DNA of 57,185 nt from a virus (lineage: Duplodnaviria; Caudoviricetes), in IMG/VR virus record IMGVR_UViG_3300037751_000127, positions 1 through 57,185 of that record, one strand, 5' to 3'. The stretch's first letter is position 1. Each line of letters opens with the position of its first letter. The notes below the pieces were generated by a model that did no database searches, was not told the DNA's origin, and saw only the letters and a program-made list of their open reading frames with translations. Positions 2,258 through 53,203 of the stretch are shown one piece after another. Position numbers and translations under genes: made by a program.

Positions 2258-3352
2258 ATGAGCAACGTCAGCGCCAAGACCGAACATCTCGTACGGGCTG
2301 CCGTCAAGGGCATCCTGGGTAATCCGCAGTCCTGGGATCAGGAGTACTGGGTCAAGACTCCCGACGATTGCCGGGCTGTCGGAGATCCGGTTCCCGTGTG
2401 CGGTACCACATACTGCCTCGGCGGCTGGATGATGCTCTATGACGGCTGGAAGCATTCTTCGATGGGGCACACTTCCCACATGTGGACCAAGGGGGACATG
2501 GCCGTCACGGATCCTTTCCAGGGCTACCTGAACTCCCTGTTCGAGCAGTACGAGGGCATGCGTTCCAGTGGCGACACGATCTTCGATGGCGGCATCGGCA
2601 CCCTGAGTGAGCTGATCGACAGGATCACGGACGATCTGGAGATCAACTTCAACGAGGACTGCCCGTGCCTCACCGAAAACGAGTCCTGCATCCTTGCCGG
2701 CTGCCCCTGTGGCCAGCATGTTCTGACTCCCGATTCAGCTCCGGAGTGGAACCCGGAGAGTCCCGATCATGCACTGTTCAAGGTCGTCGAGGCGTTCGTC
2801 ACCAGAGCGCAGGAGGACGGCGACCGGATTACCGCACGTCAGGTAATCGGCGACCGGATCCTGATGCAGGCGTTCACCGAGGCGTACACGGCAGGGCACC
2901 AGTCGCTGGTTGAGACGGTCACGGAGAAGGCCGATCGTCGCATCCAGGAAGCCCGCATGGGTATGGCCGCATCTGACGGGACGTATCAGATCCTCAAGAA
3001 TGAGAACGAGAGGCTTCGCCAGCAGGTAGGCATGCTGAACGATCAGGGTTCGGTCATCCGTAAGCTTCGAGGTCAGATCGATGACCTGAAGTCGGGGGTC
3101 CGACAGGATCCGGCAGTCGCCAAGATCAAGGCGAAGCACGCACGTGCACAAGAAAGCATTCAGGCACTCACCCTGAATGTCGCCGACCTGACCAATCGCC
3201 TCAGAAGTGCCAGTAATGAACTGATGGTGCAGAAGCGGGCCGTTGTAGAAATCCACGGGAAGCTTTTCGGTGCGCGCCAGGATGGCTTCGTGAAGGCTGT
3301 CAACGCCTGGCAGAAGGCACTCGACGTGATCAAGAAGGAAGAGAATCTCTGA
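2258..3352 (+). CDS. hypothetical protein, N-terminal WDQ..W..CGTTxCxxG domain plus C-terminal coiled coil
   Basis: 364 aa; motif shared with 37865..38230. Confidence 0.7.
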   Translation: MSNVSAKTEHLVRAAVKGILGNPQSWDQEYWVKTPDDCRAVGDPVPVCGTTYCLGGWMMLYDGWKHSSMGHTSHMWTKGDMAVTDPFQGYLNSLFEQYEGMRSSGDTIFDGGIGTLSELIDRITDDLEINFNEDCPCLTENESCILAGCPCGQHVLTPDSAPEWNPESPDHALFKVVEAFVTRAQEDGDRITARQVIGDRILMQAFTEAYTAGHQSLVETVTEKADRRIQEARMGMAASDGTYQILKNENERLRQQVGMLNDQGSVIRKLRGQIDDLKSGVRQDPAVAKIKAKHARAQESIQALTLNVADLTNRLRSASNELMVQKRAVVEIHGKLFGARQDGFVKAVNAWQKALDVIKKEENL

Positions 3353-3654
3353 TGGAAGAACCGCAACGCAGCCAGATCCTGGACTCGTACAAGGTCCTCA
3401 ATGCTCAGTTCGATCAGTCCGTAGAGCGGGCGCGCGCTGATCTTCAGGCAGGTCGGCCACTCGAAGATCTCCTTGTCGGCGGGGCTGCCGAGTTCGCGAC
3501 GGGAAGCAGCATCGAGGCGCTCGCCGCCGTCGTCGTCTGCCGGCTGCTCAAGGAGGCGCGCAAGCCTGTCCCGAAGCCTCGCAGGAAGACCAATGTCGTC
3601 GCGAACCGTCGAACGGTGAAGTCCCTGACCCGGGAGGTGCCCGATGCTGCATGA
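3352..3654 (+). CDS. hypothetical protein
   Basis: TGATG coupling to the upstream gene. Confidence 0.6.
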   Translation: MEEPQRSQILDSYKVLNAQFDQSVERARADLQAGRPLEDLLVGGAAEFATGSSIEALAAVVVCRLLKEARKPVPKPRRKTNVVANRRTVKSLTREVPDAA

Positions 3655-3913
3655 CTGGTTCCCCGACGCGCCGCTGTGGGTGCCGGTCACGGCGATGATC
3701 CTTGACGGCCTGGTCCTTCTCATCATCGCGGCATGCCTGGTCGGTAGCCCTCTCGATGCTTGGCGTCGCCGGCATGACCGCACTCAGGCTGACCTTCAGT
3801 ATGTTGACCTGAAGCGTTTTCAGGGCATCCAGGCCGACCTGTTGACGGCACCGGCGAAGCAGGGTGTCACGGCTGAGCTGAAGCGCGTATCGAAGCATGG
3901 CAAGGATGGCTGA
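3644..3913 (+). CDS. membrane protein
   Basis: Hydrophobic N-terminal helix; GGAGGT RBS. Confidence 0.55.
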   Translation: MLHDWFPDAPLWVPVTAMILDGLVLLIIAACLVGSPLDAWRRRHDRTQADLQYVDLKRFQGIQADLLTAPAKQGVTAELKRVSKHGKDG

Positions 3914-10888: not shown

Positions 10889-11103
10889 TCCGGGAAGTGT
10901 GGGTCGATTTCAATGACGTTCAGGACATGGAAACGGTCACATTAGAGAAGTTCGCGCCACCTCATCTCTATCGAGGAGAGGTCGTCCGCGCCTTCGACAA
11001 CGACGGAAACTCCTGCTGGGCCAGCGTTCTTCGGGTCGCGGACTCGAAGGTGCGACTACTGCTTGATATTGGAAGATTTCAGGATGGAGAGGTGAAGAAG
11101 TGA
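10885..11103 (+). CDS. hypothetical protein
   Basis: ATGA coupling. Confidence 0.6.
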   Translation: MIREVWVDFNDVQDMETVTLEKFAPPHLYRGEVVRAFDNDGNSCWASVLRVADSKVRLLLDIGRFQDGEVKK

Positions 11104-11339
11104 GCGACACTCCCGTACTTCAGCCAGGCGATCAGATCCACATCGCCGTGCCGGCATCGTTCAGTGATGCGATGATCGAAAAGATGAGGGACATGTATGC
11201 CGCCCGGGATGTCAAGATCTTCTTCGCTTCAGCGATCTCTAGTCCGGATATCGAGGTCATCTCGATCATCCGCGCAGCGCCGAAGCCGACGCCCGGACAG
11301 ATGATGACAGGCTTCATGCCTCCAGGGCCACGCCCCTGA
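11100..11339 (+). CDS. hypothetical protein (similar to 51685..51882)
   Basis: VLQPGDQIHIAVP vs IVHPGDHIFLAVP. Confidence 0.55.
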   Translation: MSDTPVLQPGDQIHIAVPASFSDAMIEKMRDMYAARDVKIFFASAISSPDIEVISIIRAAPKPTPGQMMTGFMPPGPRP

Positions 11340-28398: not shown

Positions 28399-29169
28399 TC
28401 AGCCTCTCCTCAAACGTGCACGGCAACGACACGCGATGACGTTGCTTGGACTTCCTGATGGATCTCCGGGAGCCATCAGAGCTTCCCCGCCGACGATGAA
28501 CGGCTGGGACACAGGACGAACCTGACCATCGGCGTCCTCGTGAGCGAGTCGAACCCGCGAATCGTCCCTGCTGTCCCAGGCCTTCAGGATCGGAATGCGA
28601 AGTTGCTGTTGTACGCTCAGGCCGTGAGCGATGATCCCGAAGTTATACGCTCGGTTCACTTCTGTGACGGCGATCGTGCGTGCCCGTGCTGGCCAATTTT
28701 CGGAGCCTGTGCCGTCAAGCACCGAACGAACGGCCTCTGCCTGACCTGCCACATCTTTGCCTTCAGCTACAGCCTTGTTCAGCGCGTTCCCGATATCGCG
28801 GTAGACTTCATCGCCGATCCGAACAAGCATGTTCCTTGTCCTGGCCAACTGTTCTTGGACGAAAGGATTGCCAGGGGAGAATGGGTTAGAGGTCCCGAGG
28901 TCGCGGTTGCCCTGGTCCCATCCGAGCCGTGCGATCTCGGCAAGGTCGGGCATCAGGTTGTCGACGACCTCAGTCCAGCTAGGGAGCACGGACCACAATG
29001 CCTCGATGTTCGGGGCAATGCCGAAGCGCACGAAGCCGGCAAGCACTGCTGCGGCGACCGATGCAAGCCAGGCAGTGAGGGCGGCGAGGACTGTCGCTGC
29101 GAAGGCTGCTTCTACTGCCGTGAGTGATGGCCCTGCCGGCGGTTCTTCCTGAACGTCGGGATACGTCAC
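28399..29169 (-). CDS. MuF-like minor head protein
   Basis: RARTIAVTE...KAWDSRDDSRVR..H..ADGQ...PGDP....VIACRC. Confidence 0.85.
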   Translation of the reverse strand: MTYPDVQEEPPAGPSLTAVEAAFAATVLAALTAWLASVAAAVLAGFVRFGIAPNIEALWSVLPSWTEVVDNLMPDLAEIARLGWDQGNRDLGTSNPFSPGNPFVQEQLARTRNMLVRIGDEVYRDIGNALNKAVAEGKDVAGQAEAVRSVLDGTGSENWPARARTIAVTEVNRAYNFGIIAHGLSVQQQLRIPILKAWDSRDDSRVRLAHEDADGQVRPVSQPFIVGGEALMAPGDPSGSPSNVIACRCRARLRRG

Positions 29170-31058
29170 AGCAGCCCCGCAGAGTCCAAGAATGCCGCCA
29201 GCAGGGTCTGGTTGTGTTCCAGGCCTGACGTGAGTAGGCCCTTCGCGTACCGGTCGAGTTCCCTGGTCATCACCGACGCTTCGATGTGCGAGCCTTCAAA
29301 GATCGCCGGGACATGCTCCCAGGCGTCCTTGAGAAGCGTATTCGCGTGATCGTTACTGGCAACCAGGGACTTCGTGTGCAGCTTGTATGCCGGGACGTCC
29401 ATCCACATGCCTCGGGTAGTCGCGGTCAGCAGGCGCTTGCCGGCAAGTTCGAGAGCACGGCGCACTACGGCATCAGCGGCTGCGAGGATCCCCGAAGGTC
29501 TCGCCGTCAGTGAGGCAATCAGGTCGGAGTCCGAATCTGCGGCGTCAGGCTGTGCCCCGATGGCCGGCGAAGACATGACCCTTCCGGGCGCTGGAGGTGC
29601 TGCCGGGCCAGGATTGGCAAGATCAGTGCCGACCTGCACGTCAGGCAGGAAGTCGGGAATGTCGATGCCCAGGAACTTGCGCACCGATTCGAGCTGGAAG
29701 AGCGTCGGATCCCGTTCGACAATGGTACGCAGGAAGCGCTGATTGCGTTCCTCCTGGCTCATCGCGTCAGATTCGTGGAATGCCCCGGCGACCCGGACTG
29801 CGGAGTCGGAGACGATCCCGAGAACATTGAGATCCTTGGCATCGACAAGGCGATTGGCCGAATTGGCCAATGGCGCAGTGTCGTACCAGAACATGTACCG
29901 GCTGGGATCCTTGCCCATCTTACGCAATGCCGGATGTAGGTATGAGGTCGTAAGTGCATCACAGATGCGGATCATCAAAGGCGCGATCGTCTTGATGATG
30001 AACTCTTCGTTCGCCCACCAGATGGACCAGTGGTTCATCTCCCTGCCGCCGAGCTGAATCTCCATCGGCACATTCAGGCCGACAGCGATCGTCTCCCGCA
30101 GTTCCTTGCGCAGGTCGATGGCCTGGCTTGACAGCACGGATTCGAAGACGATCGGCTCAATGTTCGCCATCGCCGCGAGGGCCTCAGACTCCATCGGCAT
30201 CAGAATCGGCGCGATCATCGCAGCCGTGCCAGCGCCTTGAAGATTGGAGGTGATCGCCTCGTACAGCTGCTGAAGCACTCCTTCCCAGCCCCCCGCGTAC
30301 TTGTCGGTCTTCGGGAAGTCGACAGCGGCAGGGACGGGGAGGAGGCTCGCTGAGGCCAGGCGGCTGACAAGCTGAGAAGATAGGAAGCGAACAAGTTCCT
30401 GCTGCTGGCGTAGCGGAACAAGGATGCCACGGGTCGGGGAATCGGCACGGAACATCAGCTGCGGATGCGGCGTCCAGACCCTGATGACCATGTTCCGGCG
30501 AAGATTCAGCTCCTCATACTTGCCGTTGCCGACAGCGATGGAGACGACATCGTCTCCGACCTTGCGAATCTCATTCGGGGCGACCGTATACCATTTGTCC
30601 CTGCCGCGAACACCTGTCGACTGGCCGATCAGATATGTCTCGCCGGCAACAGTCAGCGACACCCCGAGGGCGCGGAGAATCTCAGCCTTGGCACCCGGGC
30701 CTCCGAATAGCGAGGACGACAGCGCCCCGACAGCCGGATCGGAAGTGTCAGCCTCCTTGCCTTCCCTGTCGGTGCTCGGCGCGCCGACTTCTCCTTGAGG
30801 CTGGCCGTATTCATCGACTTCGCAGACATACAGGCGTATCAGGGAGCATGCGGCACCGATGTAGTCGGCGGTGTTATGCAATTCGGGAGTGTTGTTGTAG
30901 AAGTGCCAGGCGTCGCCTTGCCAGGTTCCATCGCCGAACTGGTTGAGCTGCCAGCCGGCTTCGCTGGCAAGGACCTGCACGGCCGACCCGATGACGCTCG
31001 ATTCCGTGATTGCCGGAATGTCTGCGACTTTGGCCCGGCTTCGCTTACCCAATGCCAT
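29166..31058 (-). CDS. portal protein
   Basis: 630 aa after the terminase; WQGDAW..Y...PELH; RVWTPHP; NHWSIW. Confidence 0.8.
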   Translation of the reverse strand: MALGKRSRAKVADIPAITESSVIGSAVQVLASEAGWQLNQFGDGTWQGDAWHFYNNTPELHNTADYIGAACSLIRLYVCEVDEYGQPQGEVGAPSTDREGKEADTSDPAVGALSSSLFGGPGAKAEILRALGVSLTVAGETYLIGQSTGVRGRDKWYTVAPNEIRKVGDDVVSIAVGNGKYEELNLRRNMVIRVWTPHPQLMFRADSPTRGILVPLRQQQELVRFLSSQLVSRLASASLLPVPAAVDFPKTDKYAGGWEGVLQQLYEAITSNLQGAGTAAMIAPILMPMESEALAAMANIEPIVFESVLSSQAIDLRKELRETIAVGLNVPMEIQLGGREMNHWSIWWANEEFIIKTIAPLMIRICDALTTSYLHPALRKMGKDPSRYMFWYDTAPLANSANRLVDAKDLNVLGIVSDSAVRVAGAFHESDAMSQEERNQRFLRTIVERDPTLFQLESVRKFLGIDIPDFLPDVQVGTDLANPGPAAPPAPGRVMSSPAIGAQPDAADSDSDLIASLTARPSGILAAADAVVRRALELAGKRLLTATTRGMWMDVPAYKLHTKSLVASNDHANTLLKDAWEHVPAIFEGSHIEASVMTRELDRYAKGLLTSGLEHNQTLLAAFLDSAGLL

Positions 31059-31399
31059 CAGTTGTCGTCCGATCCCAGAAGCCTGCTTGCGGCATAGGAG
31101 GTGGCCAGGGTCAGGGGCAGTAGGAGTATTGAGGCGATCCGCCAGTCGAGTTCGGCAAGCCAGATGGATGCCCCCAATGCCCACATGTTCCAGAACAGGC
31201 CAGTCCAGAAGGTGTTACACCAGTCGCACATGGTCAGCATGTAGCTGATCTTCGACTGCGGCGCGCGACCGAAATGCTTCTCAACAAAGCCCCGATAGGA
31301 GTCCCCGATGAGGTCGGTCGTCGCGAATCGAGTCGTCCTGGCCGTGGCGAGGACGACAACGATCATCCCTAAGGCGACTAGGAAGACATGGTTGACCAT
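31058..31399 (-). CDS. membrane protein (CxWC motif)
   Basis: TM helices; R.TRF.T.D...CDWC..FW. Confidence 0.7.
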   Translation of the reverse strand: MVNHVFLVALGMIVVVLATARTTRFATTDLIGDSYRGFVEKHFGRAPQSKISYMLTMCDWCNTFWTGLFWNMWALGASIWLAELDWRIASILLLPLTLATSYAASRLLGSDDN

Positions 31400-31436: not shown

Positions 31437-32975
31437 TCACTGGTACGGGTCCCAGGAATAGTTGAGCGGCATGTCAATGCTGGAGATGACCCTCGCCGCC
31501 GTTTTCTCATGCTCCATGAGATGCCGGCAAGCGTGGACGAGGGCATCAAGCCTGTCGGGACTGTTGTGCTTAGCGCCAGGAAGCAGTGGATCGAAGGTCA
31601 GCATCTGCGATTCAAGCTTCTCGAAACGATCCGTGTGATGCACTTTTCCTTGCTCGTATCGCATCGCTACCGGCTCGGCGCGCAGCTTCTTGCCGACCGT
31701 CGAGAACACTCCGCGTATCGGCGCAGTCGTATGATCAGGGAACAGCCCCTGCTTCTGTAGCTCCTTGTACGCGTCTTTGAAGACCTGCTCCATCCACGCC
31801 TTGCCGAGATTGTTCTCATAGACGAGCACGTCGGCGCTGTGGCGGATGAAGACTTTCCAGGCGTGGATGGCGGCATCGCGGCCGGCGACTTTCATTGTCG
31901 CGTCTTCAAGGACATACAGGTGATCATCGGTCTGCTTGCCGACTACGACAACACCACATTCGTCACCGTCATCGTCTCCGGTAAGTCCGGGGTCCACGCC
32001 GACGACCTTGAATGACAGCTCTTCGAGTTCGCGCAATGTCAGTGATCGTCGGTGACGCTCAATCGACTCGTAGGTGAACAGGATGCCGTCACCTTTGTCG
32101 AGCATCTCCCCGAAGAGTTCCTGACGTCCGAGGCTCGTGCCCTCATACTTCTTGAATAGCTGCCGAATGACCTGCATGGACAGGTTGAGGATGTTCTCGA
32201 AGGTCGATCCTCGAACGGTGAGAACGGTGCCGTCGTCGGTGGCGAGCCATTCCTTGAGTAGGGCTATCGGCTTCGGAGTGGTGGTGACGAAAGCGCGTGG
32301 ATGATCGTCGTCGAGGTCGGATCGCAGCGATGGGAGGATGCCCTCGTACCAGGCTTCGTAGGGGTTCTTCCATTTCGCGATCTCGTCGGCCCACAGGCTT
32401 GCGAGGTTGTATCCTCTGCCGACGTCCGCGCCGTCAGCACCTTCGAAGAAGATCTTGACGCCGGTTTCCAGGATCGTGATGCGCGGCTTCGGAGACCTGA
32501 CGTACAGGTAGTCGACGTTCTTCTTGAGCCCCTTGCGCTCAAGTACGCGCAGGATCCCGGCTGGCCCTTCCGCGCAGACGATCTGAGCATCCGACAACGT
32601 CTCTGCGATGACAAGGTGTTCGGTCGGGAAGCCGGACAGGTCATAGGGGATGTTCAGTGCCCGCTCGACGATCCACTCGCTGCCGGCTTTCGTCTTCCCG
32701 AATCCCCGGCCGGCGAGGGCCAGGTAGATCATCCACCGTCCGGGAGGCGGAAGCTGCTTGGGTCTGGCTACATACCACCATTCGTCGCGGGCCATCTCGA
32801 TCAGCGTGTTCTCGTCGACTCCGCGCAGCCAGGCTTCACGGTCGGCAGCGGGGAGCAGGGCGAGCCGGGTCTTCAGGGACTGCGTGGGGAGCCACTGCTG
32901 CTGGACGTCTCGGGGCATGGCGTGGAAGTAGTCGAGGAGTGTCTGCCCTTCTCGCGGAATGAGGTTCATGATCAC
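31437..32975 (-). CDS. terminase large subunit
   Basis: Walker A AGRGFGKT; Walker B LWADE; TTTP; VGVDP; SPDRLDALV. Confidence 0.95.
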   Translation of the reverse strand: MIMNLIPREGQTLLDYFHAMPRDVQQQWLPTQSLKTRLALLPAADREAWLRGVDENTLIEMARDEWWYVARPKQLPPPGRWMIYLALAGRGFGKTKAGSEWIVERALNIPYDLSGFPTEHLVIAETLSDAQIVCAEGPAGILRVLERKGLKKNVDYLYVRSPKPRITILETGVKIFFEGADGADVGRGYNLASLWADEIAKWKNPYEAWYEGILPSLRSDLDDDHPRAFVTTTPKPIALLKEWLATDDGTVLTVRGSTFENILNLSMQVIRQLFKKYEGTSLGRQELFGEMLDKGDGILFTYESIERHRRSLTLRELEELSFKVVGVDPGLTGDDDGDECGVVVVGKQTDDHLYVLEDATMKVAGRDAAIHAWKVFIRHSADVLVYENNLGKAWMEQVFKDAYKELQKQGLFPDHTTAPIRGVFSTVGKKLRAEPVAMRYEQGKVHHTDRFEKLESQMLTFDPLLPGAKHNSPDRLDALVHACRHLMEHEKTAARVISSIDMPLNYSWDPYQ

Positions 32976-33018
32976 ACTGTATCAACTTAATCGATGAAGT
33001 GGAACACCAGAGAAAGAG

Positions 33019-33047
33019 TTGCACTGTTGCGAATCCTGGGTTATGGT
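33019..33047 (+). promoter_or_regulatory. promoter of the Y0-HTH-HTH-Ro60 operon
   Basis: TTGCAC-17 bp-TATGGT. Confidence 0.6.
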
Positions 33048-33057
33048 TGCCGAGCAC

Positions 33058-33136
33058 TCCTGGTGCGCAGCCTCGCTGGTACATCAACTGACTCATAATC
33101 GGTATCGACCCCAGCTTGGCAAGCTTGAACTCAGGA
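33058..33136 (+). ncRNA. Y-RNA-like unit Y0 carrying a CAU anticodon hairpin
   Basis: TCCTG-GTGCG...TTGAACT-CAGGA; inner GCTGG/CCAGC; TACATCA; ACTGA-CTCATAA-TCGGT. Confidence 0.7.
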
Positions 33137-33143
33137 ACTGCTT

Positions 33144-33231
33144 GAACTCCCTGCTGTCAGCATATAAATCGGGTAGCTCCCGAGTGCTGCAAGGGATCAG
33201 GTAGCTCCTGATTCCCGATAGCAGGGAGTTC
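33144..33231 (+). promoter_or_regulatory. structured leader that sequesters an RBS
   Basis: GAACTCCCTGCTGTC/GATAGCAGGGAGTTC stem enclosing two GGTAGCTCC hairpins; 3' arm holds AGGGAG before ATG 33236. Confidence 0.6.
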
Positions 33232-33235
33232 TTCT

Positions 33236-33439
33236 ATGCCCGAAAGGCCCTACCACCAAGAGCACAAGTCATACGGACCTCAAGCGAAGTTGACTCCAGA
33301 GATCATCAAGGTGATGCGGGAGCGTCACATCGTTGGAGGCATCTCGCAGCGAACCCTGGCCCGCCAGTACGGCGTTAATCAGTCGACGATCTCCAGGGCG
33401 CTCAGCAATCAGACTTACCAGCCATTTGAGGAACTCTGA
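33236..33439 (+). CDS. small HTH protein
   Basis: AKLTPE...GISQRTLARQYGVNQSTISRAL. Confidence 0.8.
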   Translation: MPERPYHQEHKSYGPQAKLTPEIIKVMRERHIVGGISQRTLARQYGVNQSTISRALSNQTYQPFEEL

Positions 33440-33666
33440 TGCCGGGAGTAACGACGCCACCTTCAGGTCATCCGTGGAGGGACGAGGAGTACGGCTTCAG
33501 TCACCGACGCAAGCCGACCTTGACGCTCGCTGAGGTCGACGCGATCAAGGAGGCGTGGGCTACGGGAAAGTTCACGAAGTCGCGCCTGGCTCGCATCTAC
33601 GACGTCACCTCGAACATCATCACCAGGGTCATCAACGGCCAGTACAGCCACTACAGGGAGATCTGA
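33439..33666 (+). CDS. small HTH protein (paralogue of the previous gene)
   Basis: LTLAEVDAIK...TKSRLARIYDVTSNIITRVI. Confidence 0.75.
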   Translation: MPGVTTPPSGHPWRDEEYGFSHRRKPTLTLAEVDAIKEAWATGKFTKSRLARIYDVTSNIITRVINGQYSHYREI

Positions 33667-35312
33667 TGTCCAAGCTCAACAAGCAGTCGCAGAAGCAGGG
33701 CGTACCGCTTCAGGCGTTCACGAAGACGACAGGCAAGTCTCCGATCAAGGTGACGAACAAGCGGGTCGCGAACTTCGAAGGCTCGGATGCCAGCATGTAC
33801 GGCAAGAAGTCCCGGCTGATGCTGCTGGCAATGAACACGTACTCCGGCGAGGACACGTACTACGTGAAGGCCGCTGACCGGGATAAGGAACTGAAGGACC
33901 TGGCGGTCAAGGTTGGCGTCGCGGATCCGGACTGGATGAGGCGATTCCTTCCGTGGCTGCGCAGTACGGCGAACATTCGGACGTCGGCGATCACGATGGC
34001 CGTGGATGTCGCGATGGCGTGGAGGGACCCGAGGGTTGGCATCGAGGGTGGCCGCGCCCTCGTCAACTCCGTGCTCCAGCGTGCCGATGAGCCCGGCGAG
34101 GCCCTGGCGTACGCGATGAGCTACGGCCGTAATGTTCCGAAGCCGGTCAAGCGTGGCATCGCTGACGCCGCAAGGCGCATGTACAGCGAGTTCACGCTGC
34201 TGAAGTGGGACAAGGATAGCGCTGCCGTTCGGTTCGGTGACGTTCTGGAGATCACGCACCCGCAGCCGGCAACCCCGGAGCAGGTTCACCTGTTCAAGTA
34301 CGCCATCGACATCCGGCACAACCGGAACTTCGGTGACCGGAACTTCTACATGACATTGCCGATGATCGCCGAACGTCAGCGGCGCATGGACATGTGGGCT
34401 TCCGGGCAGATCATGAAGTCGCTGATGCCTGCGCACATGAAGTCCGCCGGAATCTCCTGGGAGTTCGCGCTATCCCAGCTCGGCTCGAAGATGGACAAGG
34501 CGAAGCTATGGGAGGCCCTGATCCCAAACATGGGCTACATGGCCCTGATTCGTAACCTTCGCAACTTCGAGCAGGCCGGGATCAGCGATAAGGCGATCGA
34601 GGAGGTTTCGAACCGGCTCAGCGATCCCGGGGAGGTCGCGAAGTCCAAGCAGTTCCCGATGCGCTTCCTGTCGGCGTACCGTGCCATCAACGGTGATGCC
34701 TTCCGGTACCCGCTGGAGCAGGCGCTTCAGCAGTCGCTGAACAACATTCCGCGCCTTCCGGGCTCGACACTGATCCTCATCGACACGTCAGGTTCGATGA
34801 ACGGCCAGATGTCAGACAAGTCGGGCCTTAAGCGCTGGGATGCGGCGGTGATCTTCGGATTGGCTCTGGCTGCACGCTGTGACGATGCTCAGGTTGTCAG
34901 CTTCTCCGATGCCCAGATCGGCTACTCGCACTGGTCGGGCAGGTCTACGAGCGGCACGCCTTCCAAGGTGTTTCCTGCCGTCAAGGGGGAGACGCTCCTT
35001 CGGGGGATCGAGCGCTGGGACAAGCAGGGCTTCTTCCTTGGTGCCGGCACGGACACTGCGGGGGCGGTGAACAGGCACTTCGGAGGGCATCGACGGATCA
35101 TCATCCTGACTGACGAGGAGGCGCAGACCGGCAACCCGTACGCGCAGGTCCCGGCCTCAGTGGTCAAGGTCGACGTGAACCTTGCCGGCTACGGGCACTC
35201 TCACGCGCCTGCTTCCACGCCGAACCTGATCAAGCTGGCCGGGTTGACGGACTCGATGTTCACGATGATTCCGTGGCTTGAGGCTGGCCTCGACGAGTCG
35301 TGGCCGTTCTGA
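33666..35312 (+). CDS. Ro60-like TROVE domain protein with C-terminal vWA (Rsr orthologue)
   Basis: RADEPGE, PKPVKRGIADA, KWD..DVLEITHP, MGYMALIRNLRNF, KQFPMRFLSAY; vWA MIDAS DTSGSM...GTD...ILTDE. Confidence 0.92.
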   Translation: MSKLNKQSQKQGVPLQAFTKTTGKSPIKVTNKRVANFEGSDASMYGKKSRLMLLAMNTYSGEDTYYVKAADRDKELKDLAVKVGVADPDWMRRFLPWLRSTANIRTSAITMAVDVAMAWRDPRVGIEGGRALVNSVLQRADEPGEALAYAMSYGRNVPKPVKRGIADAARRMYSEFTLLKWDKDSAAVRFGDVLEITHPQPATPEQVHLFKYAIDIRHNRNFGDRNFYMTLPMIAERQRRMDMWASGQIMKSLMPAHMKSAGISWEFALSQLGSKMDKAKLWEALIPNMGYMALIRNLRNFEQAGISDKAIEEVSNRLSDPGEVAKSKQFPMRFLSAYRAINGDAFRYPLEQALQQSLNNIPRLPGSTLILIDTSGSMNGQMSDKSGLKRWDAAVIFGLALAARCDDAQVVSFSDAQIGYSHWSGRSTSGTPSKVFPAVKGETLLRGIERWDKQGFFLGAGTDTAGAVNRHFGGHRRIIILTDEEAQTGNPYAQVPASVVKVDVNLAGYGHSHAPASTPNLIKLAGLTDSMFTMIPWLEAGLDESWPF

Positions 35313-35438: not shown

Positions 35439-35590
35439 TGAGATCGTCAGGTGCGACAGGATGCGCCTCCTTCATTGATGGTTCAACTCCACCGGACGCA
35501 GGTAAAAGTGCGTCCTAGCTCAACGGGCAGAGCAAAGCTCATCCGCAAGGATGTGACAAGGCGAATCCGCTGTGAACTCTGACGATCTCA
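35439..35590 (+). ncRNA. Y RNA unit Y1, YrlA-like (permuted tRNA domain)
   Basis: TGAGATCGTCAG/CTGACGATCTCA stem; GGTGCGA..TGAACT; T-arm GGTTCAACTCC, closed acceptor GGACGCA/TGCGTCC, D-arm TAGCTCAACGGGCAGAGC. Confidence 0.85.
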
Positions 35591-35599
35591 AACTTCGAA

Positions 35600-35786
35600 G
35601 ATTGCCTGGTGCGACGCCTAAGACGGTTACTTCACAGATGACGGCTGACCTTGTGGCATGAGGTCGTCTCAGGGTGGAAGCCCCTGAGTGACGAATAGCA
35701 GTCCAGCAATGGACGTCCGATTCGTTGTGGTGGATCAAAGACGCGGCTGAGCCAACCTCCGTCCGGCAACCTGAACTCAGGCAATC
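35600..35786 (+). ncRNA. Y RNA unit Y2 with a large non-tRNA payload
   Basis: GATTGCCTG/CAGGCAATC; GACGG/CCGTC; TTACTTCA; several internal hairpins. Confidence 0.8.
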
Positions 35787-36214
35787 CTCAAAGGTCGTGC
35801 GGTAAGCGTCTCCTCGATCTTTGATCGGTTGGACTCAAGCCATCCGACGCGAACATTACAATAAATGCACAATAGTGCCCTCACGCACTTGCCGCAGCTT
35901 CGCTTGCCTGGACAGCACGAATGATCGTGATCAACGCAGAGTCGACGACCCTTGTTAACTCTACGGCAGATCGCGCACACTCCCCCCTGTTGCACAAGGA
36001 GGAGTTCGTACTGATCCAGGGTCATGTTGTAGTTGTGCTTGAGGTTGTGGCCATGCTGCAACCGAGAGGTGTAGTCAGGATTTCTTGCCCGATAGTCTTT
36101 GATGTAGGAGCTTTTGCAGTCGAGGCATCGACTTCCGATGCCAGACCTCGCCTGCTTCGACTTAACGAACCTGTCAAGGGGCTTGTCTTCCAGGCAGCCT
36201 TTACATTGCTTCAT
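35777..36214 (-). CDS. Endonuclease VII-family (His-Me) homing-type nuclease
   Basis: QQGGVCAIC...LCVDHDH...VRALLC..CN; N-terminal CxxC. Confidence 0.85.
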   Translation of the reverse strand: MKQCKGCLEDKPLDRFVKSKQARSGIGSRCLDCKSSYIKDYRARNPDYTSRLQHGHNLKHNYNMTLDQYELLLVQQGGVCAICRRVNKGRRLCVDHDHSCCPGKRSCGKCVRALLCIYCNVRVGWLESNRSKIEETLTARPLRIA

Positions 36215-36245: not shown

Positions 36246-36387
36246 GACTTCCCGGTGCGCAGGGATCGGCTACTTCTCCTTCCAAGAGGGTGACGTCAGT
36301 TCGAATCTGACTCTCAGCTCTCAAGCCGAGATCGTCTAGCGGCCTAGGACCCCTTGTTATCCGGACCCGTTTAGAACTCGGGAAGTC
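36246..36387 (+). ncRNA. Y RNA unit Y3, YrlA-like
   Basis: GACTTCCCG/CGGGAAGTC; T-arm GTCAG-TTCGAAT-CTGAC; Glu/Gln-like D-arm TCGTCTAGCGGCCTAGGAC. Confidence 0.8.
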
Positions 36388-36391
36388 TCAT

Positions 36392-36463
36392 GGGCATACG
36401 TAGTTCAAAGGGCAGAACACTCAGAGAAAACTGAGGATCTGGGTTCGAATCCCAGCGTGTCTA
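36392..36463 (+). ncRNA. tRNA-like element with a 6-nt non-canonical anticodon loop
   Basis: D-arm TAGTTCAAAGGGCAGAAC; CTCAG-AGAAAA-CTGAG; CTGGG-TTCGAAT-CCCAG; imperfect acceptor. Confidence 0.7.
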
Positions 36464-36470
36464 CAATGCC

Positions 36471-36582
36471 GATGTCTGGTGCGAGATCCTCGAATCCTTC
36501 TAGATTTCTAGAATCCCGAAACGCACGGCACATAACCGTGAAGGTTGGGGGTAAAGCGGGGATCAACTTGAACTCAGACATC
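36471..36582 (+). ncRNA. Y RNA unit Y4 (non-tRNA payload)
   Basis: GATGTCTG/CAGACATC; GATCCTCG/CGGGGATC; GGTGCGA..TTGAACT. Confidence 0.8.
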
Positions 36583-36590
36583 ACAAACTT

Positions 36591-36688
36591 TGCCTGGTGC
36601 GATGCTTCACGGATACTTCAGATCACCAGCCTTCGGGCACCTTTCGGGAATTGATCCTCCCAAACCGTGGACACCCTGAACTCAGGCG
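36591..36688 (+). ncRNA. Y RNA unit Y5 (small branched payload)
   Basis: TGCCTG/CAGGCG; TTCACGG/CCGTGGA; ATACTTCA; GATCA/TGATC with a cUUCGg hairpin. Confidence 0.8.
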
Positions 36689-36697
36689 TCACAAACT

Positions 36698-36848
36698 TCG
36701 CTAGGTGCGTAGTCATCGGATACATCGAGTCCTCGCAGGTTCAAATCCTGTCGCCATAGCTTCAAGATGGTGTGCCAGAGTGGCCTAATGGAGCTGCGGT
36801 AAAACGTGGCAGGACACAAGCCGCCGATGACGACTTGAACTCTAGCGA
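36698..36848 (+). ncRNA. Y RNA unit Y6, YrlA-like
   Basis: TCGCTAG/CTAGCGA; GTCATCGG/CCGATGAC; T-arm GCAGG-TTCAAAT-CCTGT; CGCCAT/ATGGTG; Tyr/Ser-like D-arm GCCAGAGTGGCCTAATGG. Confidence 0.8.
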
Positions 36849-36855
36849 TCAACTT

Positions 36856-36994
36856 CTGTCAGGTGCGCAGTCCTCGCATACTTCATAGGGACCGTAGGTA
36901 CCAGGTTCAATTCCTGGCTTCCCGAACACTTCGGGAATGTAGCTCACCGGCAGAGCAGCGGTAATAGCAGCGAAGACGACTTGAACTCTGACAG
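36856..36994 (+). ncRNA. Y RNA unit Y7, YrlA-like
   Basis: CTGTCAG/CTGACAG; CCAGG-TTCAATT-CCTGG; TTCCCGAA/TTCGGGAA; TAGCTCACCGGCAGAGC. Confidence 0.85.
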
Positions 36995-37004
36995 TTCAAT
37001 AGCT

Positions 37005-37072
37005 CCATCAGGTGCGATAGGGCTCGGATACTTCATTGGCGAAAACGCCGAACCCACTTAGATCTCTGATGG
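37005..37072 (+). ncRNA. Y RNA unit Y8, minimal (68 nt)
   Basis: CCATCAG/CTGATGG; GGGCTCGG/CCGAACCC; ATACTTCA; degenerate 3' motif TTAGATCT. Confidence 0.7.
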
Positions 37073-37078
37073 TTGCAC

Positions 37079-37219
37079 GTTCGATAAGGTGTGCAGATTT
37101 CGCTTACTCCATGTTAGGGGGCTTGTCGCAGGTTCGATTCCTGCCGGCATCTTCGGATGCCGTAGCTCAGTCGGCAGAGCGGCCAAAATTCGCGAGATCA
37201 CCTTGAACTCTTATCGAAC
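37079..37219 (+). ncRNA. Y RNA unit Y9, YrlA-like
   Basis: GTTCGATAAG/CTTATCGAAC; GCAGG-TTCGATT-CCTGC; CGGCATC-TTCG-GATGCCG; TAGCTCAGTCGGCAGAGC. Confidence 0.85.
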
Positions 37220-37227
37220 TCAATACC

Positions 37228-37474: not shown

Positions 37475-37546
37475 GCTCCCGTAGCTCAACTGGCAGAGCA
37501 TCCCTGGCGCGCGGGGAGGCTGGGAGTTCAAATCTCCTCGGGAGCC
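37475..37546 (+). ncRNA. tRNA-like element with aberrant anticodon loop (GGCGCGC, no U33)
   Basis: GCTCCCG/CGGGAGC acceptor; normal D and T arms. Confidence 0.7.
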
Positions 37547-37550
37547 CTAA

Positions 37551-37784: not shown

Positions 37785-37843
37785 GGGGTCATAGCTCAAT
37801 GGTAGAGCGGCGCAGGTTGTGGGTTCGAATCCCACTGACTCCA
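37785..37843 (+). ncRNA. tRNA-like element lacking the anticodon arm
   Basis: GGGGTCA/TGACTCC acceptor; D-arm and T-arm joined by only about 10 nt. Confidence 0.75.
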
Positions 37844-38232: not shown

Positions 38233-38613
38233 ATGGAGTTCATGGAAGCGCTCGGATGGCATGTGGTCGGGCATATCGATGCACTTCAGGATGGCCTGGA
38301 TGATCAGGGCTGGCCGATCAACTGCTGCCCGATCTGCTGTGGCCCGTGTCATGCACTGAACGCCATGATCGACGATCCGATCATGCTGAACCAACTGTCG
38401 GAGATCATCAAGCTGACGGGCTGGGCTACGGGCGGCTGGGACTTCTGGTCCGAGATCGATGACATGCTGCGCGTCGGAGACATCAAGGCGATGTGGTTTA
38501 ACGAGGATGGCAGTCACAAGGCCGTCTGTTCCTCGGAGAACGGCGTCGACACTTCTCGCGAGTTCCATGCCCTGGTCATGGAAGATCTGGCAAGGCTGGA
38601 GAAGGAGCTATGA
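38233..38613 (+). CDS. hypothetical protein (CCPICCGPC)
   Basis: GGAG RBS; coupled to the next gene. Confidence 0.6.
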   Translation: MEFMEALGWHVVGHIDALQDGLDDQGWPINCCPICCGPCHALNAMIDDPIMLNQLSEIIKLTGWATGGWDFWSEIDDMLRVGDIKAMWFNEDGSHKAVCSSENGVDTSREFHALVMEDLARLEKEL

Positions 38614-39152
38614 AACCCACCTGGCTACTCGACATCGACGGCGTCCTGAATCCCGTGGGCAAGAAGCCGCCGAAGTATGTCCACAAGGAGTGGGTGTGCG
38701 CGGACGTAACGGACCCTCAGGCGGGGCGTTCCTGGCCAATCAAGGTCGCGGTGCCGGTCATCGAGTTCATCAACATGATCCATCACCAGAACTACGCCAA
38801 CATCATCTGGCATACGACCTGGCAGCATGGAGCCGATGATGTCGCGAGAGCTGTCGGACTATCAGAGGGCCTACCAGTCCTTGATGCCCCAGAGTTCGCC
38901 GCCTGGAACCACCGCACGGCTGTCGGATGGTGGAAGACGGCACCGGTTCAGCGACATCTGAACTTGACGACGACTCCTACCCTGTGGACTGATGACGACC
39001 TGGAGGATGAGACCTGGTCAGTGAAACTCCGCGCCCCGAACATCATCAAGGTCATTGCCCCGGATCAGTTCACCGGTTTGACGCCTAAGCACCTGAAGGA
39101 GATCTTCGCCTTCCTGACCCAATCGCACATCCCCGAAGAAGGAAGTTCATGA
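38610..39152 (+). CDS. HAD-superfamily phosphatase (RNA-repair 'Swiss Army Knife'-like HAD)
   Basis: LLDIDGVLN motif I; WHTTW motif II; WWK; LWTDDD motif IV. Confidence 0.8.
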   Translation: MKPTWLLDIDGVLNPVGKKPPKYVHKEWVCADVTDPQAGRSWPIKVAVPVIEFINMIHHQNYANIIWHTTWQHGADDVARAVGLSEGLPVLDAPEFAAWNHRTAVGWWKTAPVQRHLNLTTTPTLWTDDDLEDETWSVKLRAPNIIKVIAPDQFTGLTPKHLKEIFAFLTQSHIPEEGSS

Positions 39153-44487: not shown

Positions 44488-44514
44488 CCTTCCCCGAGGC
44501 TAATGATCTTCCAG

Positions 44515-44590
44515 TAGCGGGGGCGGGATTTGAACCCGCGACAGACATGGCTTATGAGGCCATCGAGCTACCGGGCTGCTCTACCCCGCT
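44515..44590 (-). tRNA. tRNA with CAT anticodon (Met or Ile2)
   Basis: Minus strand: AGCGGGG/CCCCGCT; ATGGC-CTCATAA-GCCAT; GCGGG-TTCAAAT-CCCGC. Confidence 0.88.
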
Positions 44591-52366: not shown

Positions 52367-53203
52367 TCACTCGACCAACCCAGCCTTGAGGCGTTCCTTG
52401 GCCTGACGACGCAGGGTGCTCTCGTAGTCCTGGATCCGCAGCTTCGCCGTCACCTTGCGATCATGGGACTTCAGAACGATGCCCTCAGGCTGCCCCAGAG
52501 CGCTCGGATCGAGTTTGGCCCCACTCCCGTCCAGGAGGAACTCCCGCATCCAGTCCAAGGCATCCTGAAGGCTCGTGGGGATATCCTCTCCGGCCTGACG
52601 ACGCTCGATGATCGGAGCGCGGACGAGGTTCGCCTCCTGCGAGATCTCTAAGAACCTGTCCCAGCCGACGAACGGCTGATTGCCTCGCTCACGCCAACCC
52701 GCGACGTCTTCACGGCTGTGCGACATCGTCTCCTTGAACAGCTCATCACTGAACTCGATGACGTCGAACAGCCGGTGACCGAAGACAGTCTTGTCCGTCG
52801 AGTAGTGCATGAAGTTCTGGCCGATCCTGCCGCCGTAGACCTCGAAGAAGTAGACGCGGACCTCTTCAATGCCCTGACGGTAGTGGTAGTCGTACAGCTC
52901 CGTGGCAGTACCGGCCAGCTCGGCGACGATGCCAAGCTCCGGGTTGTGTATCCAGTTCTCGGCACACGACAGCAGGTTCTCCCGGGAGCCGATCGCCCAC
53001 GTCCACTGATCCGGCAGGATGACGATCCGGGCGTTCGTGCCGTCGATCTTCTCCGAGATCTGCACCGGCTGATCCCCGAAATCGATGACCGGCTCGGACA
53101 GCATGCCATTCTTCGGGTCGATGATGTGATAGGTCGGGATCGACGGATACTTCGTCGCCGAGTTCAGCCTGGCCTGGAAGTCGCGATCACGCAGATCAAA
53201 CAT
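52367..53203 (-). CDS. ATP-dependent RNA ligase (Rnl2-like)
   Basis: KYPSI; motif I EKIDGTN; FEVYG; LFDV; EGIVLK; AK. Confidence 0.8.
   Translation of the reverse strand: MFDLRDRDFQARLNSATKYPSIPTYHIIDPKNGMLSEPVIDFGDQPVQISEKIDGTNARIVILPDQWTWAIGSRENLLSCAENWIHNPELGIVAELAGTATELYDYHYRQGIEEVRVYFFEVYGGRIGQNFMHYSTDKTVFGHRLFDVIEFSDELFKETMSHSREDVAGWRERGNQPFVGWDRFLEISQEANLVRAPIIERRQAGEDIPTSLQDALDWMREFLLDGSGAKLDPSALGQPEGIVLKSHDRKVTAKLRIQDYESTLRRQAKERLKAGLVE

Follow-up and report, generated by a model that had tools for sequence, protein, structure and literature searches.

The virus record IMGVR_UViG_3300037751_000127 (IMG/VR; Duplodnaviria, Caudoviricetes) was analysed as a single stretch of 57,185 bases, referred to here as the window, with an estimated completeness of 97% and a G+C content of about 0.60. 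On its (+) strand lies an operon encoding two small proteins and the protein Ro60, and at the head of this operon stands a 79-nt element, M0, that resembles a short bacterial Y RNA and carries at its apex a hairpin with the form of a tRNA anticodon arm. The parts of M0, the genes of the operon and the phage tRNA with which the hairpin is compared are as follows.

33019-33024 and 33042-33047, (+): promoter-like site, TTGCAC and TATGGT with a 17-nt spacer, seen in the sequence and conserved in the close relative L082.
33058-33136, (+): M0, a short Y-RNA-type module; the covariance-model match spans 33056-33138.
33058-33062 and 33062-33067, (+): 5' strand of M0, closing-helix UCCUG and conserved GGUGCG (repeat family D7; columns invariant in alignments A2 and A8).
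33070-33072 with 33118-33120, (+): inner stem 2 of M0, GCC with GGC.
33075-33079 with 33111-33115, (+): inner stem 3 of M0, GCUGG with CCAGC.
33080-33082, (+): UAC junction motif.
33087-33103, (+): anticodon-arm-like hairpin ACUGA-CUCAUAA-UCGGU, with a 5-bp stem (one U.G pair), a 7-nt loop at 33092-33098 and an 'anticodon' CAU at 33094-33096.
33124-33132 and 33132-33136, (+): 3' strand of M0, conserved CUUGAACUC (repeat family D3, 5 copies) and closing CAGGA.
33236-33439, (+): first small gene of the operon, 67 aa, helix-turn-helix (HTH; Pfam HTH_psq 5.8e-5 and further weak HTH matches); its L082 homologue is likewise HTH.
33439-33666, (+): second small gene, 75 aa, taken from the list of open reading frames (ORFs); its start overlaps the preceding stop.
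33666-35312, (+): Ro60, 548 aa (Pfam TROVE 2.2e-20, with VWA_2).
44514-44590, (-): tRNA-Met(CAU) of the phage (Rfam tRNA, 61.4 bits; also called by ARAGORN).

An earlier, sequence-only reading had placed a Y-RNA scaffold 11 nt after a TTGCAC-17-TATGGT promoter, at the 5' end of an HTH-HTH-Ro60 operon. The promoter-like site and its distance from the scaffold were confirmed, with M0 starting at 33058, 11 nt past TATGGT, and from this spacing transcription would start at about 33054, 3-4 nt ahead of M0. As for the operon, Pfam supports the labels of the first HTH gene and of Ro60, but the 'HTH' label of the second gene (33439-33666) was left unconfirmed by a Pfam search that returned no match; a homologue of this 75-aa gene directly precedes Ro60 in L082. 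M0 itself lies 530 nt upstream of Ro60 on the same strand, and its two ends form an end-to-end helix with a bulged motif, GGUGCG opposite CUUGAACUC, in which the consensus pairs are G62:C132, G63:C130 and C66:G127 and U131 is bulged (positions counted from 33000). The GGUGCG side of this closing helix is presumed to be the side that binds Ro60. Inner stems 2 and 3 are present in both the minimum-free-energy and the centroid folds and show compensatory changes in the family consensus. They lead to the junction motif (UACAUC in M0 and UACUUC in most modules, the T-A-C columns being invariant in A2 and A8), which is followed by the apical hairpin. This hairpin has every element of the anticodon-arm pattern, namely a 5-bp stem and a 7-nt loop that begins with pyrimidine-U and ends with purine-A, and, as the sequence-only reading had stated, its loop is that of the phage tRNA-Met letter for letter.

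The fold of M0 taken on its own is weak evidence, as the region 33050-33145 folds at -33.6 kcal/mol (z -2.63) and 5 of 200 shuffled sequences fold equally well. Hairpins of the form Y-U-NNN-R-A (Y, pyrimidine; R, purine) on a 5-bp stem number 13 window-wide versus 8.8 +/- 3.0 in shuffles. The combination of CTCATAA with a perfect 5-bp stem is found within the window only in M0 and in tRNA-Met, with 0.01 expected, a count that was made post hoc. Decisive evidence came instead from covariance models. Model R1, built from 16 short modules with M0 included, gave M0 47.1 bits; model R2, which served as a control for R1 and was built from 17 modules of other contigs, without window or L082 sequence, gave M0 35.0 bits (E 3.2e-6) and scored 30.9 bits on the counterpart in L082. 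This independent match is strong evidence for membership of M0 in the Y RNA family. When R1 was run across 160 related loci, it returned 122 matches (E <= 0.01) in 68 loci, every one on the strand of Ro60, with 94 upstream of the gene and 28 downstream. Over the 112 distinct matches, in an alignment that had been fitted to the R1 model, 93.3% of paired cells could pair versus 37-46% when the partners were slid, and 15 of the 16 pairs showed compensatory change. What the sequences show for M0 is its membership of the family, its strand, its position and its conservation. A regular-expression match at 11045-11226, considered as a further module, was unsupported by the covariance model.

The ends of M0 recur in the window. 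Nine tandem modules, M1-M9, located with a module finder, follow Ro60 on its 3' side, and all have GGUGCG and CUUGAACUC at their ends (repeat families D3, D7, D10, D12 and D18).

35439-35590, (+): M1.
35600-35786, (+): M2.
36246-36387, (+): M3, a near-complete permuted tRNA with the loop CUUCCAA.
36471-36582, (+): M4.
36591-36688, (+): M5.
36698-36848, (+): M6.
36856-36994, (+): M7, with a T arm, acceptor-like stem and D arm of the YrlA type (43.1 bits, below the Rfam threshold of 69).
37005-37072, (+): M8.
37079-37219, (+): M9, with the same YrlA-type arms as M7 (23.1 bits, below the same threshold).

The closing stems of the modules differ in sequence while their complementarity stays. R1 and R2 also match M8, M5 and M4, and M2, M4 and M5 carry payload structures of other kinds. 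These common ends, together with the R2 score, support the scaffold proposed by the sequence-only reading at the head of the Ro60 operon; its further remark that the module it called Y3 contains an anticodon-like CTC-CTTCCAA-GAG was also borne out, this hairpin lying at 36276-36288 in M3. A possible tenth 5' end lies near 37226, for which a clear 3' partner was not seen. An endonuclease VII gene (35777-36214, (-)) is located antisense inside the array, and its 3' end overlaps M2.

In related loci, a short module usually comes first, followed by at least one tRNA-like module and lastly by Ro60, and the first module is 85 nt or shorter in 23 of the 25 related loci that have two or more upstream modules. 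In the 15 genomic loci from Micromonosporaceae and neighbouring groups, all 17 matches share the strand of Ro60 and are located upstream of the gene. In several loci, a TAnnnT-type hexamer stands 10-23 nt ahead of the first module; this is a pattern match only, which fits a primary 5' end near the first module. Mycobacterium smegmatis has a comparable layout, with YrlA and YrlB upstream of Rsr and derived from one precursor (Chen 2014, PMC4201824). Since the first module is short in the relatives and the M. smegmatis layout is similar, the best reading of M0 is that of a short, YrlB-like Y RNA of the phage in what would be the ancestral promoter-proximal place, with the tRNA-like modules of this lineage located after Ro60. 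Weak matches to the module model were also seen upstream of annotated Ro-like genes in unannotated stretches of two cultured phages, at 2680-2754 of the Streptomyces phage GiJojo (L198; 23.7 bits) and at 2386-2461 and 2841-2917 of the Gordonia phage VanLee (L199; 24.3 and 16.1 bits). These add candidate Y RNAs in cultured phages, where they are amenable to laboratory tests.

Conservation was assessed against a single close relative (n=1), L082, obtained from a metagenome scan, whose Ro60 is 76% identical to that of the window. M0 is identical to its L082 counterpart at 70 of 79 positions (89%), which ties it for the highest of eight module pairs compared (0.72-0.89 for the other seven); 45 of the 46 positions from 33058 to 33103 are kept, and the hairpin is preserved at 17/17. 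For comparison, identity is 0.67 at the third codon positions of Ro60, 0.69 at the wobble positions of the terminase gene and 0.57 for the first HTH gene. The promoter reads TTGACA-18-TATGGT in L082. These comparisons show purifying selection acting on M0. Two coding readings of the region were not kept: a 61-aa ORF at 33019-33204 (+), since L082 has indels there and no (+) ORF of at least 55 aa, and a minus-strand ORF from 33096 to 32836, whose ATG is complementary to CAU and which runs into unrelated sequence in L082. Further orthologues were sought in several ways. No GenBank phage matched 32950-33700 in a blastn search, a single-sequence Ro60 query of viral contigs found nothing and an alignment-based Ro60 search of viral contigs recovered relatives at <=50% identity only. 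Viral contigs scanned for the exact pattern of junction and stem of M0, whatever the loop, gave 0 matches, and a terminase-based search yielded one 53% relative, L197, without a module (best 10.7 bits). The L082 locus differs from the window in several respects. An HNH endonuclease gene (2099-2614; Pfam HNH_3 2.7e-12) lies between its terminase gene and the M0 promoter, and the GTTGCAC of the -35 region persists beside the terminase gene, which looks as if the promoter region had been divided or copied when the HNH gene was inserted. The operon of L082 also contains, between its two small genes, a gene for a Thg1-like 3'-5' polymerase (3036-3866; Pfam Thg1 6.6e-26, Thg1C 8.1e-7) that is absent from the window.

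From these data we consider it probable that M0 is a real short-class Y RNA that partners Ro60, YrlB-like, with its own conserved promoter, and that it forms the first ~85 nt of the transcript labelled HTH-HTH-Ro60. Several observations weigh against this reading. The promoter upstream of M0 fails a strict sigma-70 scan, its -35 element matching at 3/6 positions, and no Rfam family matches M0. The closing helix of M0 is the weakest among the modules, with 5 bp (4 bp in L082) versus 6-12 bp elsewhere, and its hairpin begins 7 nt past the U of UAC versus 2-3 nt in most modules. In 75 of 145 unique modules, no hairpin of at least 4 bp with a 7-nt loop was found in the scanned place. The module statistics overstate independence, because related sequences were counted and some contigs were in both collections, and conservation of the CAU triplet rests on one close orthologue (n=1), a match that 0.67^7 puts at about 6% by chance. 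Within the leader, Rfam returned chance-level matches only (5S rRNA at 17.1 bits on the minus strand, mir-3140 and ST7-OT3_2), and M0 was called a tRNA by neither the Rfam tRNA model nor ARAGORN and forms no cloverleaf.

From the sequence we infer that Ro60 binds M0, where transcription starts, how M0 is processed and what kind of partner the hairpin has. Ro60 would bind at the conserved, bulged helix in which GGUGCG faces CUUGAACUC, and cleavage after 33137, ahead of the helix that follows, would set M0 free. The apical 5-bp/7-nt hairpin would then be the outward-facing part, showing the shape of an anticodon arm to a factor that reads such loops, for example a modification enzyme, a nuclease or a repair enzyme. 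The less ordinary traits of M0 are that it carries a lone anticodon arm on its scaffold and that it sits in the leader of the operon, beside a helix that masks the ribosome-binding site.

The terminase and portal genes diverge from the operon, leaving an intergenic gap of 260 nt.

31437-32975, (-): terminase large subunit.
29166-31184, (-): portal gene.

A search scoring 8000 candidates returned 4140 relatives of Ro60 at E <= 1e-30. The proteins P0002-P0023 are 63-84% identical to the window Ro60; the closest GenBank phage Ro60 is 40% identical (97 records, every one below 60%) and the closest cellular proteins, at 46-49%, are from Micromonosporaceae (Dactylosporangium, Micromonospora and Asanoa). 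This hints at Micromonosporaceae as the host group, although proximity of Ro60 proteins is no proof of it. Just 3' of the RNA array, 38610-39152 encodes a HAD domain of 'Swiss Army Knife' RNA repair proteins (HAD_SAK_2, 6.7e-7), and an RNA ligase family protein (4.6e-12) is encoded away from the array at 52367-53203 (-). This gene neighbourhood, taken with the Thg1-like gene of L082, is consistent with RNA repair. Three matches to the tRNA model have an abnormal anticodon region (37785-37843, 36394-36464 and 37475-37547): in the first, the acceptor, D and T arms are present while the 13 model positions of the anticodon arm are empty, and ARAGORN assigns no amino acid to the second. M0 shows the reverse case, with the anticodon arm only.

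M0 is followed by a second structure in the same leader.

33141-33231, (+): second leader structure, opening with a second CUUGAACUC copy (33141-33149) and forming a long helix with arms 33144-33158 and 33217-33231 (inverted repeat I15).

This helix pairs the Shine-Dalgarno sequence GGGAG (33224-33228), 7 nt before the ATG at 33236, with CUCCC. The leader as a whole folds very stably (-84.1 kcal/mol, z -5.54), with 0 of 200 shuffles as good, and the helix encloses two hairpins with a UAGCU loop, CGGG-UAGCU-CCCG and AUCAGG-UAGCU-CCUGAU. L082 keeps the outer helix and the CAGGUAGCUCCUG hairpin, and the interior diverges. As DNA, the second UAGCU hairpin, the only one of the two kept in L082, is an inverted repeat and a possible operator for HTH proteins.

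This arrangement raises the possibility, also put forward in the sequence-only reading, that M0 is a cis-acting autoregulatory leader, in which Ro60 bound to the Y helix on the messenger would alter translation or stability downstream, for example through the helix that hides the ribosome-binding site. Such a role is compatible with M0 being a Y RNA. M0 lies in the 5' leader, about 100 nt ahead of the first ATG, and the adjoining structure, which sequesters the Shine-Dalgarno sequence, begins with a second conserved copy of CUUGAACUC and has retained its outer helix in L082 despite a diverged interior. However, the sequence flanking the second CUUGAACUC copy cannot pair with the 5' end of M0, so an alternative Ro-site helix would lack its closing stem; a switch in which the second copy replaces the first was rejected on sequence, no closing helix being possible. 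Furthermore, nothing in the leader links occupancy by Ro60 to the second helix, and the modules of most relatives stand 40-220 nt before Ro60 without such an arrangement. Because a promoter-proximal short Y RNA is ordinary in the relatives and in published bacteria (Chen 2014), the position of M0 by itself calls for no regulatory explanation, and we think it rather unlikely that autoregulation is what M0 is for.

The hairpin of M0 is one case of a wider pattern, and this family-wide signature is a more interesting result than M0 itself. Hairpins were counted by fixed geometry, since choosing one hairpin per module by energy gave too much noise where modules were short. Of 39 modules with a canonical 5-bp/7-nt T arm, 14 have a perfect 5-bp/7-nt hairpin 4 nt ahead of the T stem and 8 have one 5 nt ahead (22 in all), and 0-3 modules have the same hairpin at any other offset from 0 to 12. 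The spacers between hairpin and T stem, such as AGGUU, UGGUU and AGGUC, resemble tRNA variable loops, and the Rfam tRNA model places an anticodon arm, variable loop and T arm in register on L010:3840-3897, with the weak score (17.2 bits, E 0.49) that a partial tRNA would be expected to give. Counted from the UAC junction, a hairpin of at least 4 bp with a 7-nt loop begins 2-9 nt downstream in 70 of the 145 unique modules. U33 and R37 (loop positions 2 and 6) occur together in 43 of these 70 hairpins versus 14% of controls, and the complete Y32-U33...R37-A38 frame in 31 of 70 versus 2.3%. Within the 43 U33/R37 loops, G36 is followed by G37 in 8 of 8 cases and a base other than G36 by A37 in 31 of 35 (Fisher 3.4e-6; 1e-4 with unique loops), a link that control hairpin sites do not show. 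Bacterial tRNAs show the same pairing of positions 36 and 37, m1G37 following G36. Phage and Micromonosporaceae loci alike have an anticodon-arm-like hairpin following the UAC junction, which is a trait of this Y RNA family in general.

The identity of the central triplet is less constant than its frame. In orthologous modules from Dactylosporangium, the stem UUCGA/UCGAG stays the same while the loops read CUGCUAA, CUGUUAA, CUACUAA, CUGUUGA and CUAUGGA, so that the triplet moves and the C-U...R-A frame is held. Cellular Y RNAs with this invariant stem lie upstream of Ro60 at L175:2846-2981, L168:2788-2923, L170:2812-2947 and L166:2799-2928 (from the Micromonosporaceae set L162-L176), and in one such loop positions 36 and 37 change jointly. 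Modules that, like M0, carry the arm only include L008:6031 (CUAUUAA), L034:6158 (CUCGUAA), L083:6094 (CUAUCAA) and L042:3827 (CUGUUAA), and the CUCAUAA loop of M0 is also a possible reading in L040:3416, a full tRNA-like module. The sequence-only reading had described M0 as displaying a lone Met-like anticodon hairpin and had named conservation of the CTCATAA loop in homologous loci among its checks. The anticodon-arm-like apex stands, and the hairpin is kept in full in L082, but a display specific to Met does not, as the hairpin is a family-wide trait and its triplet varies in orthologous modules of other loci. As triplets vary among orthologues elsewhere, some with A34, the identity of the M0 loop with that of the phage tRNA-Met may be incidental.

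A broader proposal would treat the actinobacterial and phage Y RNAs as anticodon-arm displays mounted on Ro60, with fast-evolving triplets, that act as bait or sensor for anticodon-loop enzymes, M0 coupling damage to its loop with expression of Ro60 and RNA-repair genes; we regard this as speculative and unlikely. A narrower form holds that the hairpin of M0 baits an anticodon-loop nuclease of the host, so that cleavage would spare the real tRNA (a decoy) or alter expression of the Ro60/repair operon (a sentinel, the version put forward in the sequence-only reading). The hairpins of the family do obey anticodon-loop grammar, the phage tRNA carries the identical loop, RNA-repair-type genes are present, and the constant stem with a changing triplet in Dactylosporangium is a pattern of the arms-race type. 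A published analogue also exists in the Salmonella rsr-yrlBA-rtcBA operon, which is activated by damaged tRNAs (Hughes 2020). On the other hand, a nuclease for this hairpin is purely hypothetical, and variation of the triplet fits an absence of constraint equally well. Several loops have A34, a base unusual at this position in real tRNAs, and so are not copies of real targets. The stem of M0 differs from that of the phage tRNA-Met and has no match above control among the tRNAs of five Micromonosporaceae genomes, which may not be those of the host. In a search of these five genomes with the 17-mer arm at <=3 mismatches, 5 matches were found versus 8 for the reversed control, so a copy of a host tRNA was rejected for these genomes. 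We give a decoy or sentinel role for M0 little credence.

Two further accounts would deny M0 a present role as an RNA. In the first, M0 is a degenerate ancestral upstream Y RNA that no longer has a role and resembles tRNA-Met by chance. Its closing helix is indeed the weakest of the module set, its payload is shorter than those of the tRNA-like modules, and the excess of anticodon-like hairpins over shuffles is small enough for such hairpins to be common by chance. The conservation of M0 and of its promoter speaks against decay: because M0 is 89% identical to L082 versus 67-69% at wobble positions, with 45 of 46 positions kept across its 5' part, a functionless relic is improbable to a marked degree. 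The second account, that conservation comes from a promoter or operator of the divergent terminase and structural operon and so acts on DNA, is scarcely credible, for although that operon must have a promoter within the 260-nt gap and a minus-strand promoter-like TTGCCA-16-GATTAT (33122 to 33095) overlaps the hairpin, this match is at chance level (3 sites versus 1.8 +/- 1.6 expected), the HNH gene separates M0 from the terminase gene in L082 (though about 45 terminase-proximal nt are conserved), and strand-specific covariation and family membership would be left unexplained.

As a short-class Y RNA, M0 is closest to YrlB and the other short bacterial Y RNAs described in Salmonella Typhimurium and M. 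smegmatis (PMC4201824). Like M0, these lie beside Ro60 on the same strand, have a long stem formed by their ends with a 5'-proximal motif, are without a full tRNA-like domain and are co-transcribed with other Y RNAs, upstream of Rsr in the case of M. smegmatis. M0 differs from them in being phage-borne, in leading an operon with two small genes ahead of Ro60 and in its apical 5-bp/7-nt anticodon-type hairpin. The likeness between its motif GGUGCG(A/C)AG and the GNCGAAN0-1G or GGUCCGA of Chen 2014 (PMC4201824) is approximate rather than exact. With the YrlA-type modules of the window, M7 and M9, M0 shares the scaffold and the UAC (YUAY) junction. It is unlike YrlA (RF02553) in lacking the T, acceptor-like and D arms; the RF02553 model gave no match at E <= 10 within 33000-33260 and none in a 7-kb scan, and the T-arm motif is absent from the 79 nt. 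Compared with a tRNA, M0 likewise lacks the D, T and acceptor arms, so that its arm is mounted on a Y scaffold; it shares with the phage tRNA-Met the 5-bp/7-nt geometry and the CUCAUAA loop but has a different stem sequence.

The operator of the Escherichia coli thrS gene likewise has, close to the ribosome-binding site of a 5' leader, a hairpin that resembles an anticodon arm; the regulator there is the synthetase encoded by the same messenger. No synthetase is encoded here, and the resemblance is one of idea only. Among phages, a published parallel is that of the Thermus phage phiLo, whose Y-like RNAs Yrl1 and Yrl2 also lie upstream of a phage Ro60 (NAR 2025, PMC12135203) and are reported to bind that Ro60 and the host PNPase in vitro. 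The phiLo system differs in that its Ro60 is distant (25% identity), and the word 'anticodon' has 0 occurrences in the part of PMC12135203 drawn on here. In Deinococcus radiodurans, Yrn1 has been modelled with an 'anticodon arm' with a 5-bp stem (Chen 2014, PMC4201824), which differs from that of M0 in having a loop of 6 nt rather than 7 and in belonging to another Y RNA lineage.

A literature search found no paper with an anticodon-arm reading of the hairpin described above; the supplements of Chen 2014, with their phage YrlA lists, lay outside this search and may already show some of these hairpins. The UAC junction of M0 has its counterpart in the conserved YUAY with which the V loop starts in Chen 2014 (PMC4201824). 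In that paper the hairpin before the T arm is named 'V' and equated with a variable arm, and Salmonella YrlA is stated in Wang 2018 to lack an anticodon loop. In the present family, by contrast, the hairpin before the T arm fits an anticodon arm in both geometry and loop grammar. This geometry and grammar, and the modules that carry the arm by itself, point to partners that read anticodon loops.

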